64,000 nt of DNA, taken from IMG/VR virus record IMGVR_UViG_2718217859_000011, positions 23,757-87,756 of that record; one strand, 5' to 3'. Position numbers and translations under genes: made by a program. Numbering within the stretch: the stretch's first letter is position 1; each line of letters opens with the position of its first letter. Below are positions 10,192-42,039 of this stretch, piece after piece. This DNA comes from a virus. Taxonomy: Duplodnaviria > Heunggongvirae > Uroviricota > Caudoviricetes. The notes under the pieces were generated by a model. That model had not been told where the DNA came from, did no database searches, and saw only the letters and a list, made by a program, of their open reading frames with translations.

Positions 10192-11007
10192 TCAGTGAAC
10201 GGTATCGAGCAGCTTTAACAGCTCAGGGAATCGGGATTCGAAGAAATGCGGCTGCGTCTCGCGCGGATTTGCAGGACTGGTGATGTTCTTGCCGAACATG
10301 CAGCCTTTCGCCGTCAGCGACCAGAATTTTTTGATGTTGTTAATCGCGGTACGGCTGTATCGTTCGCGTTGTTCAACAATCCCCAGCTTCGCCATCTGGT
10401 GATATGCCTGACTAGCCGTCAGGCGGATACCATACTGCTTCAGCAGTGCACTCAGCGACAGCGTAGGGCGGCTTGAACCATCTGGCGCATCAGCAGGTGC
10501 ATCAATGGCATAGATCGGCATAAGTTCAGGAAGACCTGCTACCTTTGATAATTTCTGGTATGCACCAAGTTTCGAGGAGTTTGACAGATTTAGAGTCTTT
10601 GCTGCTGATTCAAGCAGAATGACCCCGGATTTAATTTTGTCGGATGTGGTTTCTTCTGGTGATGAATTATGAAGCGCATCAAAAGTACGTATCACTTTTA
10701 AGCTGAATGCCGGGCTGATCCACATTGCATATGCATAGACCAGCTCTTTACAGACATACGTCCCACCATTGCGCCCCTGAATGGTGATGACAGGAATACT
10801 ACGGGAATCTCCCGTAGTTTCTTCTTCCAGTAATTCCACAAGAGCCTTCGTTTCAGGACGACGCATAAACTCGTGAACTTCCAGCGAACGGGAGGAGCGA
10901 TTCTCACCAGCGGCAAGAAGAGCAGCTTTCTGAAGGTCGTTAAGACAGTAGTTAGATTCAAAGTACTGGCGCACAGAAACGCCATCAATTACAAGCAACT
11001 GATTCAT
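10192..11007 (-). CDS. KilA-N domain protein (antirepressor-like)
   Basis: Start at 11007 with GGAGAA RBS; N-terminal KilA-N-like segment (GRNGGTYVCKELVYAYAMWISPAFSLKVI). Confidence 0.6.
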   Translation of the reverse strand: MNQLLVIDGVSVRQYFESNYCLNDLQKAALLAAGENRSSRSLEVHEFMRRPETKALVELLEEETTGDSRSIPVITIQGRNGGTYVCKELVYAYAMWISPAFSLKVIRTFDALHNSSPEETTSDKIKSGVILLESAAKTLNLSNSSKLGAYQKLSKVAGLPELMPIYAIDAPADAPDGSSRPTLSLSALLKQYGIRLTASQAYHQMAKLGIVEQRERYSRTAINNIKKFWSLTAKGCMFGKNITSPANPRETQPHFFESRFPELLKLLDTVH

Positions 11008-11158
11008 TGGTTTCTCCACAAATTTCGGGACTGCACTCCCTTTTCGTTGATGCAAGATGAACTTACTGCGATTTTTAATAGTTATCAAGGATACACTGTT
11101 CATAAATACAGTATCTTTAACGAGGTAATACCCAAATTTAGGGTGTTGCTCAATTCCG

Positions 11159-11554
11159 TTACCGAGTTGCTAATTTGCAACTCGCTTTTTCGTACTTACT
11201 GATAGTGATCTCGACCTTACCTTCCGGGATAACCGGTCCCCACTCCACCAGCATTCTTTTCACCTGACTGTCGTCTTCCCACACCCCCGCGTGGGTCAGG
11301 GCGTCAAACAGCGCCTTGTTATAGTTGTCCAGATCGCGGATCCGGTTATCCGGAGGAAACAACACGATCTCCACTGAAGCAGGTGCCGACGTTGGTTTCG
11401 GCAGACGACGTAACTGCTCAACTATTGCTGCGCACGCCGCGCTCTGGAATTTTCGCCCCGCCGCGCTTATCAGGCTCTTACCAGCAAACGCCCCTTTGTT
11501 GGGGTGTCGCCAGTACGTGTTCACGCTGGGCGGGAAAGGCAGTATTAGCTTCAT
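11159..11554 (-). CDS. Second RusA-family resolvase paralog
   Basis: 131 aa; PPSVNTYWRH and NRIRDLDNYNKALFDALTHAGVWEDD match the RusA signature. Confidence 0.7.
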   Translation of the reverse strand: MKLILPFPPSVNTYWRHPNKGAFAGKSLISAAGRKFQSAACAAIVEQLRRLPKPTSAPASVEIVLFPPDNRIRDLDNYNKALFDALTHAGVWEDDSQVKRMLVEWGPVIPEGKVEITISKYEKASCKLATR

Positions 11555-11877
11555 ACTTTCAGGCCCCTCTCATGTAACCAGTGGGTTGCACGCAGCCTGG
11601 CGTTTTCCTCACCGGCAAGCAGTGAGCGGATAATCCCGACCGCCTCGCTGTCGTCGTCCTTCATCGCAGTATGAAGCGTTATCCCCCGGGCCACGCCACG
11701 CTTTATCGTGATGACGCCTTTTTTCTCCAGTGCGCGAAGATGCTCCACCGCTGCATTCACTGAACGGTATCCCAGCATGGTTGCCACCTCCTGATTGGTT
11801 GGCGGGAAGCCACGTTCTTGCTGGTAAGAAATCAGCATATCCAGCACCTGCTGCTGACATTGAGTTAACGTCGTCAT
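11551..11877 (-). CDS. LexA-like N-terminal DNA-binding domain protein (no peptidase domain)
   Basis: 108 aa from MTTLTQCQQQVLDMLISYQQERGFPPTNQEVATMLGYRSVNAAVEHLRALEKKGVI (LexA-type winged HTH); TAATG stop/start overlap with the upstream gene. Confidence 0.5.
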   Translation of the reverse strand: MTTLTQCQQQVLDMLISYQQERGFPPTNQEVATMLGYRSVNAAVEHLRALEKKGVITIKRGVARGITLHTAMKDDDSEAVGIIRSLLAGEENARLRATHWLHERGLKV

Positions 11878-12371
11878 TAAGCCCCCACGTAATTCCCTGA
11901 CAGATACCATTCATCACCCGATACAGCGCGCTTGCTGCTTTTCCGTAAGCACCGCTCACGACGCGCCAGAAAATTGTTTCGTTCTGGCTGGGAGTGGCTT
12001 TCACGGAATGCCTCCATCCACACCGTTGCAGCTCGACGGAATAAGCTCCTAGACTCCAGTTCTTCAGCCTGGCGGGTCAGGCACAAAATCACCCGGGGGT
12101 CGTTAGTGCCGACATAGAAATTGCGCACAGGTCTGGTTTCACGAACAGATTGTGGTTCCGGCTCCTGCGCTCTCTCAGTCAGGCGCGGGAAATGTCTGCG
12201 TGTATCTCCTTCACAACGGTGAGCCACACGCCCACTCTGACGTAACTTGCTTGCTGACTGCAGAACGCGCTGCCGTGAGTAACCAGCAAAAGCATCCGCA
12301 ATGTCTCCGGAAGTACACCCCGGATGGGCTTCAATGAATTTCTGAACTTCATTCAAAAGACTCATAATCAC
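11877..12371 (-). CDS. Hypothetical protein (164 aa) in the position of the replication partner gene
   Basis: ATGA overlap with the stop of the O-like fragment; no DnaC or lambda P signature seen. Confidence 0.45.
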   Translation of the reverse strand: MIMSLLNEVQKFIEAHPGCTSGDIADAFAGYSRQRVLQSASKLRQSGRVAHRCEGDTRRHFPRLTERAQEPEPQSVRETRPVRNFYVGTNDPRVILCLTRQAEELESRSLFRRAATVWMEAFRESHSQPERNNFLARRERCLRKSSKRAVSGDEWYLSGNYVGA

Positions 12372-12769
12372 CCCCTGAATCCTGCCGGGATCTGGCTGTA
12401 GTCCACGTTGTCGTAACTGGCTTTGAAGTACGGGTCCTCGCGTCTGGCTGCAGATACTGCAGGAACTTCCCAGGATTCTTCGAAATGACGATCCGGACCA
12501 AAGAACGTGACAGCCTGTTTCACAAATTGTGTGCCGCTGTTACCCATCGCAGATACCCAGCCCGCGTAGCGTTTCACACCTTCCAGCATGGTTTCGGGGT
12601 TTACCCCCTCATTCAAACGGGCTTTCCAGGCTTTGAAGGCTGCAGATTTTAAATTGCCACCAGCACGTTTGGGATAGGCCAGCCATGCCTGCTCAAACTC
12701 CGGAGAGTATTCCGGTCGGTTTGAACGAACTCGCACAGACTCATCAGCAGATGCACCAACAGCTATTGG

Positions 12770-12925
12770 TTCATTGACTGGTTCTTTGACTGGTTCAAAA
12801 GAGTGACTGGTTCTGGGTGAATCTCCTGCACTACCCCCTGGTGCAACTCCTGCACTACCTGGTGAATTTGCTGCACCAGATAGTGAATTATTTGCACTAC
12901 CCCCTAGTGAATCTCCTGCACCATC
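12770..12925. repeat. Iteron-like direct repeats (lambdoid ori within the O gene)
   Basis: Tandem imperfect repeats (tgactggttc x3; tgcactacc..ggtgaat units) that remain in frame and encode GSAG-type linker repeats. Confidence 0.5.
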
Positions 12926-12946
12926 AAGATGAAGGAGATAGATATT

Positions 12947-12951
12947 ACTTG
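12947..12951. repeat. Target-site duplication ACTTG (left copy) of the Mu-like insertion
   Basis: Identical 5 bp at 51963-51967. Confidence 0.6.
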
Positions 12952-20660: not shown

Positions 20661-20843
20661 ATGAAAAACCGTAAGGCAAAAATTCTGTTAGCTCGCAGAA
20701 ACGGTGTTGGGGTCTGGCGATGGTTGAGGATTAGTAACAGACGAGTGAGGTTGACGGGGTGTCGTGGTGTGATGGGGCACAGTTGTTGCAAAAAGCCCAG
20801 CGCGGCGCAAAACCGCTGGAAGAATCACACTAACGCAAAGTAA
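20661..20843 (+). CDS. Small basic protein (60 aa)
   Basis: ATG at 20661 with AGGGGA RBS; Arg/Lys-rich. Confidence 0.3.
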   Translation: MKNRKAKILLARRNGVGVWRWLRISNRRVRLTGCRGVMGHSCCKKPSAAQNRWKNHTNAK

Positions 20844-20874: not shown

Positions 20875-21189
20875 ATGTTTTGGTCTGCCAAAAGCGATGT
20901 TTTGGTCATTATGAAGATTGAACAAATCGGAATGGCAGCCTTCCGGCAGCAGGCTGAAAGCGGTGGCGTGGATGAGTTCGTCGTGCAGAGGTTCGGTGGT
21001 GTGTATCACCTCTTCGCTGTGAATCGCCGCGCTGGTGTGTCTTATTTTCTACAGGAACGCCGTGGCGATTACAAGACGTGGCTGTCTCTTGACCGTGCCG
21101 CCGCGTTCCTGTCAGGGATTGGCGTTTCACGTTTTACCGTGCGTTTTGAGGATAACAAACATGCTGAAAAAGATGATCGGAGCCATTAA
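20875..21189 (+). CDS. Hypothetical early protein (104 aa)
   Basis: ORF preceding gemA. Confidence 0.35.
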   Translation: MFWSAKSDVLVIMKIEQIGMAAFRQQAESGGVDEFVVQRFGGVYHLFAVNRRAGVSYFLQERRGDYKTWLSLDRAAAFLSGIGVSRFTVRFEDNKHAEKDDRSH

Positions 21190-21559
21190 AGCCGGTCAGG
21201 CGTATCTGGGGTGGGATGATGTCCTTTATCGCCAGACGCTGGCCCGCCTGACCGGTAAAACCAGCACCACACGCTGCAACCTCGATGAACTGCGCATCAT
21301 CCGGGAATACATGCACGAACAGGGATTTCCGCGCAAAGCACCCGCCGGTAAAGGTCGCCGCCCCCGTGTTGCAATGAGCAGAAAATCAGTATTATCCAAA
21401 ATTGAAGCGTTGCTGGCTGATGCCGGTCGTTCCTGGGCATATGCAGAAGGGCTGGCATCTCACATGTATAAGCAACATGTGATCGAATGGCTGACGGATG
21501 AACAGCTTTTTGGGGTAATGGTGGCGCTGGTTAAAGATTCAAGAAGGAGAAATCAATGA
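21161..21559 (+). CDS. GemA-like regulatory protein (Mu gp16 family)
   Basis: 132 aa from MLKKMIGAIKAGQAYLGWDD; position before mor. Confidence 0.55.
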   Translation: MLKKMIGAIKAGQAYLGWDDVLYRQTLARLTGKTSTTRCNLDELRIIREYMHEQGFPRKAPAGKGRRPRVAMSRKSVLSKIEALLADAGRSWAYAEGLASHMYKQHVIEWLTDEQLFGVMVALVKDSRRRNQ

Positions 21560-22035
21560 TGAAAAAATGGTTGTTTTGTTTAGTAGGGGTTATTTTCTCT
21601 TGTTCTGCGTTGGCTCAGACAGAGGAACAGGCGCAAAAGGAACTGAAACGTTATCAGGATATGAAACCACAGGTTGAGCAACTTCTGAGGGAAAGCCTGA
21701 AACTCTATTATGACATGCCAGACGCTGCATCAGAATATAATAACGGTAACCCTGAAAAATGGCGTAAGGTCATAACAGGCCTGAAGGAATTCGATAAACA
21801 AATAGAGAAAATTGGCGGTAATGGCTTCGATCCTGTTTATAGTTCCTGTGTAAATATGGGGATTCAACTACAGGATTACTGGTCTAACGTCCTCGGCAAC
21901 AACAAACAGTTTCTCGAGCGTTCCAGAAGTTTGTTTATACAGGATCGCATGGATTGCTTTGATCAATTCGTCTTTGGTAAAGAACGTATAGAGGCCAGAA
22001 AAGACCTTGCCATTGTTAATGTCTGGGATGAATAA
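21556..22035 (+). CDS. Secreted/periplasmic protein with signal peptide (moron between gemA and mor)
   Basis: AAGGAG RBS; N-terminal signal peptide MMKKWLFCLVGVIFSCSALAQ; followed by its own terminator. Confidence 0.55.
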   Translation: MMKKWLFCLVGVIFSCSALAQTEEQAQKELKRYQDMKPQVEQLLRESLKLYYDMPDAASEYNNGNPEKWRKVITGLKEFDKQIEKIGGNGFDPVYSSCVNMGIQLQDYWSNVLGNNKQFLERSRSLFIQDRMDCFDQFVFGKERIEARKDLAIVNVWDE

Positions 22036-22042
22036 ACAGGAA

Positions 22043-22066
22043 CCTCCGCAAACGCGGAGGTTTTTT
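22043..22066 (+). terminator. Rho-independent terminator after the secreted-protein moron
   Basis: cctccgc-aaa-gcggagg hairpin followed by tttttt. Confidence 0.6.
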
Positions 22067-22129
22067 ATGAACTGTACAGGCGATCATGTATGGCTATAAT
22101 AACAGTAAGTTACTACCGGAGACGCCATC

Positions 22130-22597
22130 ATGCAGACCTTCAGTGAAACAGATCTTCGCGATGCGCAGGTACTGCTGCCCGATTCCGTACAGCAACTGAT
22201 TAGCGTGATTGGCTTCCCCGCCCTGACCCGGTTAATCCGTTCTTTTGGTGGCGTGACGTTAAGCGGTAAAACCGGCGCACACGCCGGACGCACCGGCGGT
22301 GTCCATGCCCTGTTACATGACGTGCTGACCGAAGACGAAATCAACAAATTGATCCGCTTTCTTGGCGGTGCACCGTTTTACATTCCTCGTTGCGATCATG
22401 CGTTACGTGCCCTGCGTAACACCCGTTTTATGGCTGATTTACAGCAGCATGTAAAAGACGGATGCTCACACCGGCAGGCGCTGGCACTACTCTGTCCCCG
22501 TTACGGGATTTCAGACCGGTACGCATGGCAACTGATACACCGACGACAAAAACAGACTTCGCTGAAAAGCCCCACCCAGGTGGGGCTTTTTGATTAA
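22130..22597 (+). CDS. Mor/C-family transcription activator (Mu middle/late regulator)
   Basis: 155 aa; C-terminal HTH region (CSHRQALALLCPRYGISDRYAWQLIHRRQ) typical of Mor/C. Confidence 0.6.
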   Translation: MQTFSETDLRDAQVLLPDSVQQLISVIGFPALTRLIRSFGGVTLSGKTGAHAGRTGGVHALLHDVLTEDEINKLIRFLGGAPFYIPRCDHALRALRNTRFMADLQQHVKDGCSHRQALALLCPRYGISDRYAWQLIHRRQKQTSLKSPTQVGLFD

Positions 22598-24138: not shown

Positions 24139-24321
24139 ATGAACAGAAGTCACTGGCCCCACAGAACGCCACGTAAAGCCGTGCGCTGTGTTCTGGCCCT
24201 GTTTCTGGTGATGTTGCTTCCGGTGGGATGCACTGACATTAACAGAGCGGGCCAGCTGTTTGACGCGGCGGCACAGGTCTGCCGGATTATCGACGGTATC
24301 CGGCAGTGTTCGCAGAACTGA
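24139..24321 (+). CDS. Small lipoprotein (spanin candidate)
   Basis: 60 aa; lipobox-like LLPVGC after a signal sequence. Confidence 0.4.
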   Translation: MNRSHWPHRTPRKAVRCVLALFLVMLLPVGCTDINRAGQLFDAAAQVCRIIDGIRQCSQN

Positions 24322-37251: not shown

Positions 37252-37428
37252 CCGAAGAGCAAATCATGACCATGAGCCGTCCCGAGCTGGACGGCTGGCT
37301 TGCCGCCGTTGACAGGCTGAACGGCGGCGGTTCAGGAAGAAAGGACACCTCACAGACCACCCGCCAGTCATTTAAATCCCTCAGAAAGAAACGCAGAAAA
37401 GGTAAGCAGAAAAATGGCCGGTAATTTC
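37146..37428 (+). other. -1 frame extension overlapping the chaperone 3' end (candidate programmed frameshift product)
   Basis: -1 frame open from 37146 to a stop at 37426-37428, bridging the chaperone stop and overlapping the tape-measure start. Confidence 0.3.
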
Positions 37429-39423: not shown

Positions 39424-40995
39424 TTACTGAGAGCTCAGATCAACTTTCCAGGGCAACAGATCGCGTACCCGGTTTGCCGGCCAGTCCTGGATATGTTCAA
39501 TGACGTAACGCAGCCACTTTTCTGGCTCCACATTGTTCAGACGGCATGTGCCGATCAGCGAGTACAACACCGCCGCATGTTCACCACCGCTGTCGGAACC
39601 CGCGAACATCCAGTTTTTCCGGCCTACGGCCACTCCCCGTAAGGCGTTCTCTGCGATGTTGTTGTCGATTTCCACCCAGCCATTACTGCAGTACACGTTC
39701 AGTGCATCCCACTGTTTCAGCAGGTATGCGAACGCTTTTGCCGTATCTGAGTGACGCGACAGTGTTTTCATCTGTTGCTGTATCCAGTCATACAGTGACT
39801 GCATCAGTGGCGCGGCTCTGGCTTTTCTTGCCGCCAGACGCTGTTCTGCTGAACAGCCCCGGACCTCTGCCTCGATGGCATACAGTTCACCGATACGCTG
39901 CAGGGCTTCCGTGGTGATGTAGGTGGGCGCTCTTGCATGCACATCGTGGATTTTTCTCCGGGCATGAGCCATACACGCGGCTTCCGTTATTCTGCCGGAT
40001 TCGTATAACGCCCGGTAACCACCGTAAGCATCGGCCTGAAGCACACCGCTGTAACCGGCCAGGTGATTTTGTGGATGGATACCTTTCCGGTCCGGACTGT
40101 ACGCGAACCAGACCGCCGGGGGCATCTGTGAACCGGCGTTACGGTCATCACGGACGTAGACCCACAGCCGGGCTGTCCGGGTTTTACCGCTGCCCGGCTC
40201 CTGGACCGGGACGGGGATATCATCAGCATGGACTTTACCGGGCATCAGCACATACTGGCGCAGGACGTCATACAGCGGCTCCAGCAGTTCAGCAACAGCA
40301 CCTGTCCAGCGCCCCAGTGTGGCACGGCTCAGCTCCACTCCCTGACGACGGTATATTTCTGACTGGCGGTATAACGGCAGATGGTCTGCATATTTCCCGG
40401 TGACAACATGGGCCAGAAGCCCCGCTCCGGCATAACTGCGTGCAATGGGTTTTGAAGGTACTGGTGCCTGCACGATATGGTCGCACCGGCAACAGGCCTG
40501 TTTCGGACGTTGTGTTTCGATAACCTTAAAGGCGCTGCTGATAAGCTCCAGTTGCTCTGACACATCACATCCCAGAGAACTGAGTTCACCACCACAGGCA
40601 GGACAGCATTCCTCTTCCGGCCGGATAACCCGGGTTTCACGGGGAAGTGAGGCCGGTAACGGTTTACGGGCTGAAGACTGGCGCAGGGCGGATGGCAGTA
40701 CCGGGTCATATTGCTCACCCAGCGTTTCCGCCATTTCTTCCTGAAGTGCGCTGATTCGCTCCTGTGCTTCCTGTATCTGCCGTTCGGTTTTTGCACGAAG
40801 TTTTTCTGAGCTTTTACCGAACTGCATACGTTGCAGTTTCGCAACCAGCGCCTTCAGCCGGTTGATTTCGGAAGCATAAGCCGCCACCCGCTGTGAGAGC
40901 AGGCGGTTGTATTCAGCCATCTGGCGGATGGTGTCCTGTTGCGTCTGCAACAGTGCCCGCAGGCGGGCGTTCTCATGAGCAAGTGAGGTGTCCAT
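39424..40995 (-). CDS. IS66-family transposase TnpC
   Basis: 523 aa; N-terminal leucine zipper, Cys-rich zinc-finger region (CPACGG...CRCDH) and DDE core. Confidence 0.85.
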
Positions 40996-41014
40996 ATCCT
41001 CACTTTACAACGGG

Positions 41015-41362
41015 TTATATGCGGATTCCAGCGCGTTCCGTTCGTTTCGGGTGCTTCCAGTTGATACCTTCAAGAAGCATGGATAACTGAGCCGGAGTAA
41101 GGTGCACCTTGCCGTCACGGGTGACTGGCCAGACGAAGCGGCCCCGCTCCAGGCGTTTGGTGAAGAGGCACAGTCCGTCACTGTCAGCCCACAACACTTT
41201 TATCTGGTCACCCCGGCGTCCGCGGAAGATGAACAGGTGTCCGGAGAACGGGTCATCCTTCAGGACGTTCTGAACTTTTGATGCCAGGCCGTTAAAGCCA
41301 TTTCGCATATCGGTGATACCTGCAACCAGCCAGATACGCGAACCTGCAGGGAGAGATATCAT
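41015..41362 (-). CDS. IS66-family TnpB (Orf2)
   Basis: 115 aa; typical size and sequence of IS66 Orf2. Confidence 0.8.
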   Translation of the reverse strand: MISLPAGSRIWLVAGITDMRNGFNGLASKVQNVLKDDPFSGHLFIFRGRRGDQIKVLWADSDGLCLFTKRLERGRFVWPVTRDGKVHLTPAQLSMLLEGINWKHPKRTERAGIRI

Positions 41363-42039
41363 CAGTGGCTGCTCCCTTTTATTTCGCGGATAAGTGTCTG
41401 TAATAACGCCGGCGTCAGTTTACCTTTAAGCCTGAGAGTTCCGGCCGGCAGAACCAGCTCACAACACAGACTGTCGGACGGTGTATTTATCTGCTCTGGT
41501 TCCTGTGCGGGGGCCGGGATTTTATTATCCGGCTCCGGCGTTAACGTCACGGGAAGCAGTGCCGGCATATTTTTTCCGGAAGGCAGCAGGCCACCTTTCC
41601 GGTATTGATGGCGCCAGTTGAAGAGCAGGTTATCGTTGATTCCGTTTTCCCGGGCGATCTGCGCCACACAGGCTCCGGGCTGCAGTGACTGCTCCACTAA
41701 GGCGATTTTAAACTCATAAGGGAAGTTGGGCCGCCGGGGACGTTTTTTTACCACGGGGGCTTCGGATATAACGGTGCTTTCAGGACGTACGACTGGTACC
41801 GTGGAAAATTGTCCGTAAAGGCAGGCATCAAGTTCCTGCTCCGACATGCCTGCGGGCAAAGGCCACGAAAGGCCAGCTCTCCGAAAGCGCACGAACATAC
41901 TACAAACTGTTGATTTTGGTACACCCAGGCGACGCCCGGCCACAACCCGGGGTAAATGTTCTTCAAAGTGAAGACGTAAAGCTTCAGTGATCCAGGTCCG
42001 GTGTTTCATACGATAGTGTCCATTAAAAATGATGGACAT
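41362..42039 (-). CDS. IS66-family accessory protein TnpA (Orf1)
   Basis: 225-aa ORF with ATGA overlap to tnpB; HTH-like N-terminal region. Confidence 0.55.
   Translation of the reverse strand: MSIIFNGHYRMKHRTWITEALRLHFEEHLPRVVAGRRLGVPKSTVCSMFVRFRRAGLSWPLPAGMSEQELDACLYGQFSTVPVVRPESTVISEAPVVKKRPRRPNFPYEFKIALVEQSLQPGACVAQIARENGINDNLLFNWRHQYRKGGLLPSGKNMPALLPVTLTPEPDNKIPAPAQEPEQINTPSDSLCCELVLPAGTLRLKGKLTPALLQTLIREIKGSSH

Follow-up and report, generated by a model that had tools for sequence, protein, structure and literature searches.

An exchangeable last gene in the early operon of a Mu-like prophage, for a predicted exported four-helix-bundle protein

The window, by which we mean the whole 64,000-nucleotide stretch of viral DNA analysed here, contains a Mu-like prophage, and between the GemA gene and the Mor-family gene of this prophage lies an open reading frame for a 159-residue protein (gene X; positions 21556–22035, + strand, as are the parts of the gemA–mor region described below), which begins with ATGATG. 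The initial annotation had placed such a reading frame between gemA and mor and had given it an AAGGAG ribosome-binding site, and both assignments are confirmed here. The upstream neighbour, gemA (gp16 family; 21161–21559), matches Pfam PF06252 (E = 3.5e-18) and phrog_286, and an alignment of the slot states described below shows that its final ~10 codons vary with the state of the slot. The downstream neighbour (22130–22597) is a Mor/C-family transcription activator, as identified by Pfam PF08765 (28.3 bits against a cut-off of 24.9), by phrog_836 (“late transcriptional activator”) and by pairwise identities. The ribosome-binding site (21544–21549) is located inside the gemA coding sequence, six bases 5′ of the ATG of X, and this ATG overlaps the TGA stop codon of gemA as ATGA. 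The GC content of gene X is 0.41, compared to 0.52 for gemA and 0.54 for mor.

Gene X was compared with two of its alleles. The allele of the enteropathogenic Escherichia coli (EPEC) strain E2348/69 (gene E2348C_RS14200) gives a dN/dS of 0.15 at a dS of 1.28, and a Salmonella allele gives 0.14 at 0.55. Such low dN/dS ratios at high dS mark gene X as a real coding gene under constraint. An RNA element at the locus was also considered and dropped, since a search of the region with Rfam gave nothing above threshold and the sub-threshold matches were caused by the terminator hairpin that follows the gene.

The X protein begins with a segment laid out like an SPase I signal peptide (MMKKWLFCLVGVIFSCSALA; 21556–21615). 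The residues MMKK are followed by a hydrophobic core of 9–13 residues and by ALA|QTEE, with cleavage predicted after ALA on the basis of hydropathy, the −3/−1 rule and conservation. The Kyte-Doolittle maximum is 3.1 over 9 residues, and nothing later in the protein exceeds 1.0; by hydropathy, no hydrophobic segment follows the signal peptide and no transmembrane helices flank the mature domain. The layout is kept in all 18 aligned relatives, in agreement with the Sec-type signal peptide that had been proposed for X, and we predict that the protein is exported by the Sec route and cleaved by SPase I. Lipoprotein processing (SPase II) was rejected, as Cys16 is replaced by a phenylalanine in two relatives (P0006 and P0007) and the −2 position is a phenylalanine.

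The mature domain comprises 139 residues (21616–22032), which form four helices according to the family alignment (A2) and the structural model. An AlphaFold model computed with the 18 sequences has a pLDDT of 89.9 and a pTM of 0.81, and we predict with high confidence that mature X is a compact four-helix bundle containing two invariant cysteines. Four residues, Gly64, Cys98, Trp109 and Cys134 (precursor numbering), are invariant across the 18 sequences of alignment A2, down to ~20% identity. In the model, Cys98 and Cys134 occupy facing registers of the antiparallel helices 3 and 4. From this arrangement we infer a disulfide bond between them, which would fit a periplasmic location. Fold searches returned only generic four-helix bundles at 3–11% identity, among which Talin rods and designed bundles score equal to sensor domains, and Foldseek gave no match at E ≤ 0.001.

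Searches by sequence likewise gave few assignments. The window protein has no significant match in Pfam, PHROGs, NCBIfam or PADLOC, none of the 18 family members matches Pfam at E ≤ 0.01, and a sequence search of solved structures returned no match to X. More specifically, Pfam, NCBIfam and PADLOC gave no significant match to lysozyme-inhibitor, virulence or anti-phage defence families. Distant members do match PHROGs of unknown function (P0019 and P0026 match phrog_29261; P0017 matches phrog_29261 and phrog_30411; E = 1e-19 to 5e-8), and the window protein and its close relatives are below the reach of these two profiles. In a database of 5.8 billion proteins, only 9 clusters match the family; a full HMM search of 1.84 billion representatives identified 12 at E ≤ 0.001, and further searches added a few more members. 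The phage database contains no DNA or protein match to the window X and none to P0013 or P0017, and its sole family match is that of P0019, in one Klebsiella Mu-like phage. IMG/VR holds 5 loci, which are close relatives of X only, and none for P0010. No family X locus was found in species-representative genomes, and our literature search found no paper naming accessions of family X proteins.

Comparison of six E. coli prophages (DNA alignment A4) defined a variable slot (21530–22071) consisting of the C-terminal tail of gemA, the cargo reading frame and the terminator hairpin. Homology common to all six stops after GGTGGCGCTG and restarts at CTGTACAGG. E. coli RM9088 and a group of bovine isolates from Okinawa match the X region of the window at 100% identity. 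The flanks of the slot are present in 57 of 5,426 complete E. coli genomes. We inferred the slot state of each genome from the span of the match and checked five representatives; independent counts came from a separate search with each cargo gene. Family X occupies the slot in 22 of the 57 genomes, 10 with the window type (98–100% nucleotide identity) and 12 with the E2348/69 type (76%), and the independent gene search also found 22. An unrelated exported protein of 112 residues with a weak Sel1-repeat signal occupies it in 12 genomes (13 by independent search), and another unrelated exported protein, of 174 residues, in five (five by independent search). All matches to X and all matches to the Sel1-like gene adjoin gemA, and the 174-residue gene occurs only in the five genomes already given that state. 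The three cargo genes all have a GC content of 0.38–0.43, and each opens with a predicted signal peptide.

The initial annotation had suggested a comparison with Mu-like prophages that lack the gene, and this is available on the same backbone: the slot is empty in 18 of the 57 genomes, with 95 bp between gemA and mor, and the flanks of the empty slots are 96–97% identical to those around X. X is accordingly neither a core gene of Mu-like phages nor, from the searches above, one of known function. Of the two alternative cargoes, the 112-residue protein is WP_029392799.1 (L002, 1054–1392), whose weak Sel1-repeat match gives no family assignment, and the 174-residue protein is WP_089600771.1 (L003, 1106–1630), which also has no family assignment and comes from mice in at least 3 of its 5 genomes.

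The two E. coli alleles of X are 93–95% identical in their first 120 nucleotides and 58–75% identical beyond. The flanking genes have a dS of ~0.1, compared to 1.28 for X, a difference of about tenfold. Because X is so much more diverged than its flanks, and because identity falls after the first 120 nucleotides, we conclude that old alleles of X have been recombined into a young, near-identical backbone. We describe X as an accessory gene that is open to exchange and that lies last, at the 3′ end, in the early operon of this Mu-like prophage.

The gene had been credited with a dedicated rho-independent terminator. A strong hairpin does follow it: AACCTCCGC-AAAC-GCGGAGGTT (22041–22062) and the adjoining T-run (the whole feature spanning 22041–22066) have a folding energy of −18.4 kcal/mol (z = −4.9), and 0 of 200 shuffled sequences folded equally well. 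The hairpin is not dedicated to X, however. The corresponding site of the empty-slot relatives L004 and L006 also carries a terminator, in which GCCCCTGC-CTTG-CAGGGGC runs into six T, and the type of hairpin is independent of the cargo. In the six-prophage alignment, type 1 is common to the window and to the prophages with the Sel1-like cargo, and type 2 is common to the E2348/69 allele of X, the 174-residue cargo and the empty slots. For both reasons we assign the terminator to the backbone, where it would end the early operon, and not to the cargo.

A scan for a simple sigma-70 consensus identified only two promoter-like sites on the + strand, at 20824 and at 22073. The latter, TGTACA-16-TATAAT (22073–22100), follows the terminator and precedes the Mor-family gene, and both the site and the mor leader are identical in all six E. 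coli prophages compared. In the intergenic regions of Salmonella and Yersinia relatives (L020, L008 and L011), the TGTACA and TATAAT hexamers are kept and the spacers have diverged. With both hexamers retained in all three hosts and the spacer free to change, the site looks functional. In phage Mu, the early transcript ends with mor; the succession of a terminator and a promoter-like site between gemA and mor seen here is unlike that arrangement. Directly upstream of X, the same scan found no sigma-70-like site, and a weak or atypical promoter could escape a consensus of this simplicity. By eye, a near-site, TTGCAA-15-TATTAT, can be discerned inside gemA (~21369–21395), with a spacer outside the usual range. 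Given this near-site and the simplicity of the scan, expression of X in the lysogen is therefore possible. As no promoter-like site was found upstream of X and the terminator belongs to the backbone, we regard X as the final gene of the early operon, and not as an autonomous unit with a promoter and terminator of its own.

Every family member whose context could be read is located in a Mu-like prophage, and such phages carry the family in Escherichia, Salmonella, Yersinia, Xenorhabdus and Klebsiella. The gene order is gemA-X-mor in E. coli, Salmonella and Yersinia; gemA-HI_1489_N-mor-X-mor2 in Xenorhabdus, where mor2 is a second Mor-family gene; gemA-mor-X-endolysin in two metagenome-derived contigs; and gemA-X-endolysin in Klebsiella phage ST405-OXA48phi1.1, in which mor is not annotated. 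The gemA-mor arrangement that X interrupts had been called otherwise conserved. Adjacency of the two genes does hold in near relatives, but not in Mu-like phages at large, as the Xenorhabdus order illustrates and as reported for other Mu-like phages with genes between gemA and mor (PMC4553209).

Of the 7 lineages read, 6 (all but Klebsiella) had their downstream sequence folded. In each of these 6, no further gene lies between X and a hairpin, which sets X apart from the genes that follow, and X has a lower GC content than the locus around it; a T-run accompanies the hairpin in 5. Of the two Mor-family genes of Xenorhabdus (L012, 5535–5990 and 6561–7019), the first shares 34% identity and the second 53% with the Mor-family protein of the window. 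In view of the greater similarity to the second, the position of X directly upstream of that activator is conserved. The window “mor” also sits just before the lysis genes, and it may correspond to Mu C and not to Mor. X thus recurs, as an optional occupant, at one position in Mu-like phages and is not a one-off insertion. Some copies may be decaying, since P0018 (106 residues) resembles a frameshifted or truncated allele of the E2348/69 type. In distant homologues, the intergenic region downstream of X opens with a common motif, CCACTGAACCCCTTC or a near variant (L012, 6466–6500; L023, 6451–6480; L024, 6475–6500), which is followed by the hairpin. This motif may be a regulatory site, for example for a Mor-type activator.

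Comparison with two other copies places the bounds of the Mu-like prophage at 12950–51967 of the window. Its left flank (11000–12950) matches lambdoid prophage genes (PerC, RusA, a LexA-family repressor and KilA-N), so the element seems to have transposed into another prophage. Other copies are located inside fliH in OkiPb01701 (L025, NZ_AP042598.1) and inside eutC in EPEC E2348/69 (L026, NC_011601.1), consistent with Mu-type transposition to random sites that disrupts a host gene each time. Relative to the OkiPb01701 copy, the tape-measure gene of the window, which starts at 37414, is interrupted by an IS66-family element (TnpA, TnpB and a 523-residue TnpC; 39424–42039, − strand). The prophage copy in the window is probably defective, though gene X is intact. 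In the tail-fibre region of some relatives, the fibre assembly genes point in opposite directions, which resembles the invertible G segment of Mu (L026, 35192–37434; L027, 12141–14294; L029, 11233–13397; L030, 11936–14058), and this region has the opposite orientation in the tcmA_3 copy. A long fibre gene and a DUF4376 gene take the place of the G-like module in the window, in the OkiPb01701 copy and in E. coli M8.

The ribosome-binding site inside gemA, the ATGA overlap, the lack of a promoter-like site upstream and the backbone terminator together suggest that transcription of X would start at the early promoter of the phage, along with that of the transposition genes, and that its translation would be coupled to that of gemA. 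The early operon of phage Mu is repressed in lysogens. By analogy with Mu, X would be made upon infection or induction and not in the repressed lysogen. We consider it likely that the anatomy, the mode of expression and the export of X are as proposed here.

What X does once exported is a matter for a more tentative proposal. In the course of lytic growth, the periplasmic protein would target the cell envelope or an incoming phage, and its likeliest role would be that of an exclusion, receptor-masking or envelope-protecting factor; the two unrelated exported proteins in the same slot of sister prophages would then be functional alternatives to it. Such a role is favoured by the alternation of three unrelated exported proteins in the slot, by a family distribution that follows the phage and not the niche of the host, and by the precedent of T4 Sp and T5 Llp, which are early periplasmic or envelope exclusion proteins of other phages. 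Slot content shows no one-to-one link with the tail-fibre module, on the weak evidence of only six prophages: the invertible G-like module is found alongside X allele 2, alongside the Sel1-like cargo and alongside an empty slot. The comparison thus lends no support to masking of the phage's own receptor. We consider the exclusion or envelope function possible rather than likely; the full account, in which X is an exported accessory protein of the early operon with periplasmic exclusion or envelope action, is offered just as tentatively.

The initial annotation had proposed instead that X is a lysogenic-conversion factor. X is indeed accessory, low in GC and predicted to be exported; it is intact in a prophage whose tape-measure gene is interrupted by IS66; and it is present in pathogens such as EPEC E2348/69. 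Against this reading, no promoter-like site precedes X, its ATG overlaps the stop codon of gemA, and in Mu lysogens the early operon is repressed. Furthermore, the family keeps a fixed position in Mu-like phages whose hosts differ widely in niche (E. coli, Yersinia, Xenorhabdus and Klebsiella), which points to a phage-centred role, and X matches no lysozyme-inhibitor or virulence family. Lysogenic conversion would be possible were a promoter missed by the scan; as matters stand, we find it rather doubtful.

The neighbourhood of X invites a different reading, namely that X is a periplasmic protein associated with lysis, whether antiholin-like, endolysin-modulating or spanin-like. In three lineages the gene is directly upstream of an endolysin gene, and elsewhere the next gene downstream is the activator ahead of the lysis genes. 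The i-spanins are exported helical proteins with conserved cysteines, as X is predicted to be, and the lysis cassette of the window contains a small lipoprotein reading frame and no obvious i-spanin: a 60-residue, o-spanin-like reading frame with the lipobox LLPVGC (24139–24321, + strand) directly follows the M15 endolysin gene, and no obvious i-spanin partner was seen nearby. Against this, the hairpin parts X from the downstream genes in most of the lineages read, X is missing from sister prophages with the same holin (WP_001372993.1), and it co-occurs with five unrelated endolysin families (M15, GH108, GH24, Amidase_2 and GH19). These three observations make a lysis role unlikely. Unlike an i-spanin (Rz-like), moreover, X is modelled as a compact bundle and not as an extended coiled coil, and no partner lipoprotein (o-spanin) gene is embedded in or adjacent to it. 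We rejected two specific forms of this reading: spanin identity, in view of the compact model, the missing partner gene and the optional nature of X, and an endolysin-specific inhibitor, in view of the five different endolysin families.

The predicted fold raises the question of whether X could interfere with host signalling from the periplasm, as a decoy or modulator. It would then be a soluble version of the four-helix sensor bundle of a chemoreceptor or histidine kinase, and its binding to a ligand or to a sensor domain would change envelope signalling in the infected cell. In the model, X does share the four-helix-bundle fold of the 4HB_MCP and other periplasmic sensor domains (chemoreceptor ligand-binding domains, QseE and TorS). 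Unlike these, it is predicted to be soluble, without flanking transmembrane helices, a signalling domain or a Pfam match. Four-helix bundles are generic, and with Talin rods and designed bundles scoring equally well at the same low identities, with no Foldseek match at the threshold used and with no sequence-family match, we regard this reading as improbable. That X is neutral or decaying passenger DNA with no current function, as its optional presence, low GC and rarity (22 of 5,426 complete E. coli genomes) might suggest, is already disfavoured and very improbable, given the purifying selection across deeply diverged alleles (dN/dS 0.15 at dS 1.28), the invariance of four residues and the signal peptide down to ~20% identity, and a position kept over five genera.

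The periplasmic exclusion or envelope role can also be extended into a bolder proposal. The final position of the early operon may be a dedicated, exchangeable slot for exported periplasmic effectors in enterobacterial Mu-like phages, filled by at least three unrelated families or left empty. X would then be a previously undescribed four-helix-bundle effector with a specific target, such as a component of the incoming phage or the periplasmic domain of a host envelope sensor, and its diverged alleles would reflect differing target specificities. We put this forward as speculation, and consider it improbable as a whole.

Among known systems, the closest comparison is with morons, the term applied to X in the initial annotation. 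As defined by Juhala and Hendrix for lambdoid phages and summarised in PMC4378225, a moron is an autonomous extra phage gene with its own promoter and terminator. X resembles morons in being a single extra gene between genes that adjoin in close relatives, in a base composition that differs from that of its flanks, and in a product that we infer to act on or in the envelope. The accessory nature of the cargo, which is low in GC and missing from prophages with 96–97% identical flanks, bears out this part of the description. The autonomy does not stand, since X has no promoter-like site of its own, would be translationally coupled to the preceding gene through the ATGA overlap, and is followed by a terminator that belongs to the backbone. 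The locus is better described as an operon-embedded cargo slot.

The slot is also reminiscent of the regions of genomic plasticity in the Mu-like phages of Pseudomonas (the D3112 group; PMC4378225), where fixed backbone positions hold varied single accessory reading frames or none and show dips in GC. It differs from these in phage lineage and in the slot itself, and in that all three cargo genes are predicted here to encode exported proteins. If the working model is correct, X would resemble T4 Sp, T5 Llp and Cor as a small exported phage protein that acts in the envelope. It has no sequence or fold similarity to them, and it is not a lipoprotein.

On present evidence, X is an ordinary accessory phage gene, uncharacterised and located in a variable slot of a temperate phage, and not a new kind of system; that the slot is filled with exported proteins time and again is of modest interest. 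Genes of unknown function abound in the early “semi-essential” region of Mu-like phages. Within it, small proteins of three unrelated families, all predicted to be exported, recur at one fixed position, as the last gene ahead of the early terminator, and family X follows Mu-like phages across at least five enterobacterial genera. These proteins provide a small, defined set of candidates for periplasmic functions of phages, such as exclusion, receptor masking or envelope signalling. Near-identical backbones whose slot is filled, filled differently or empty offer natural controls for the study of such functions, and the carriers include the well-studied EPEC strain E2348/69.
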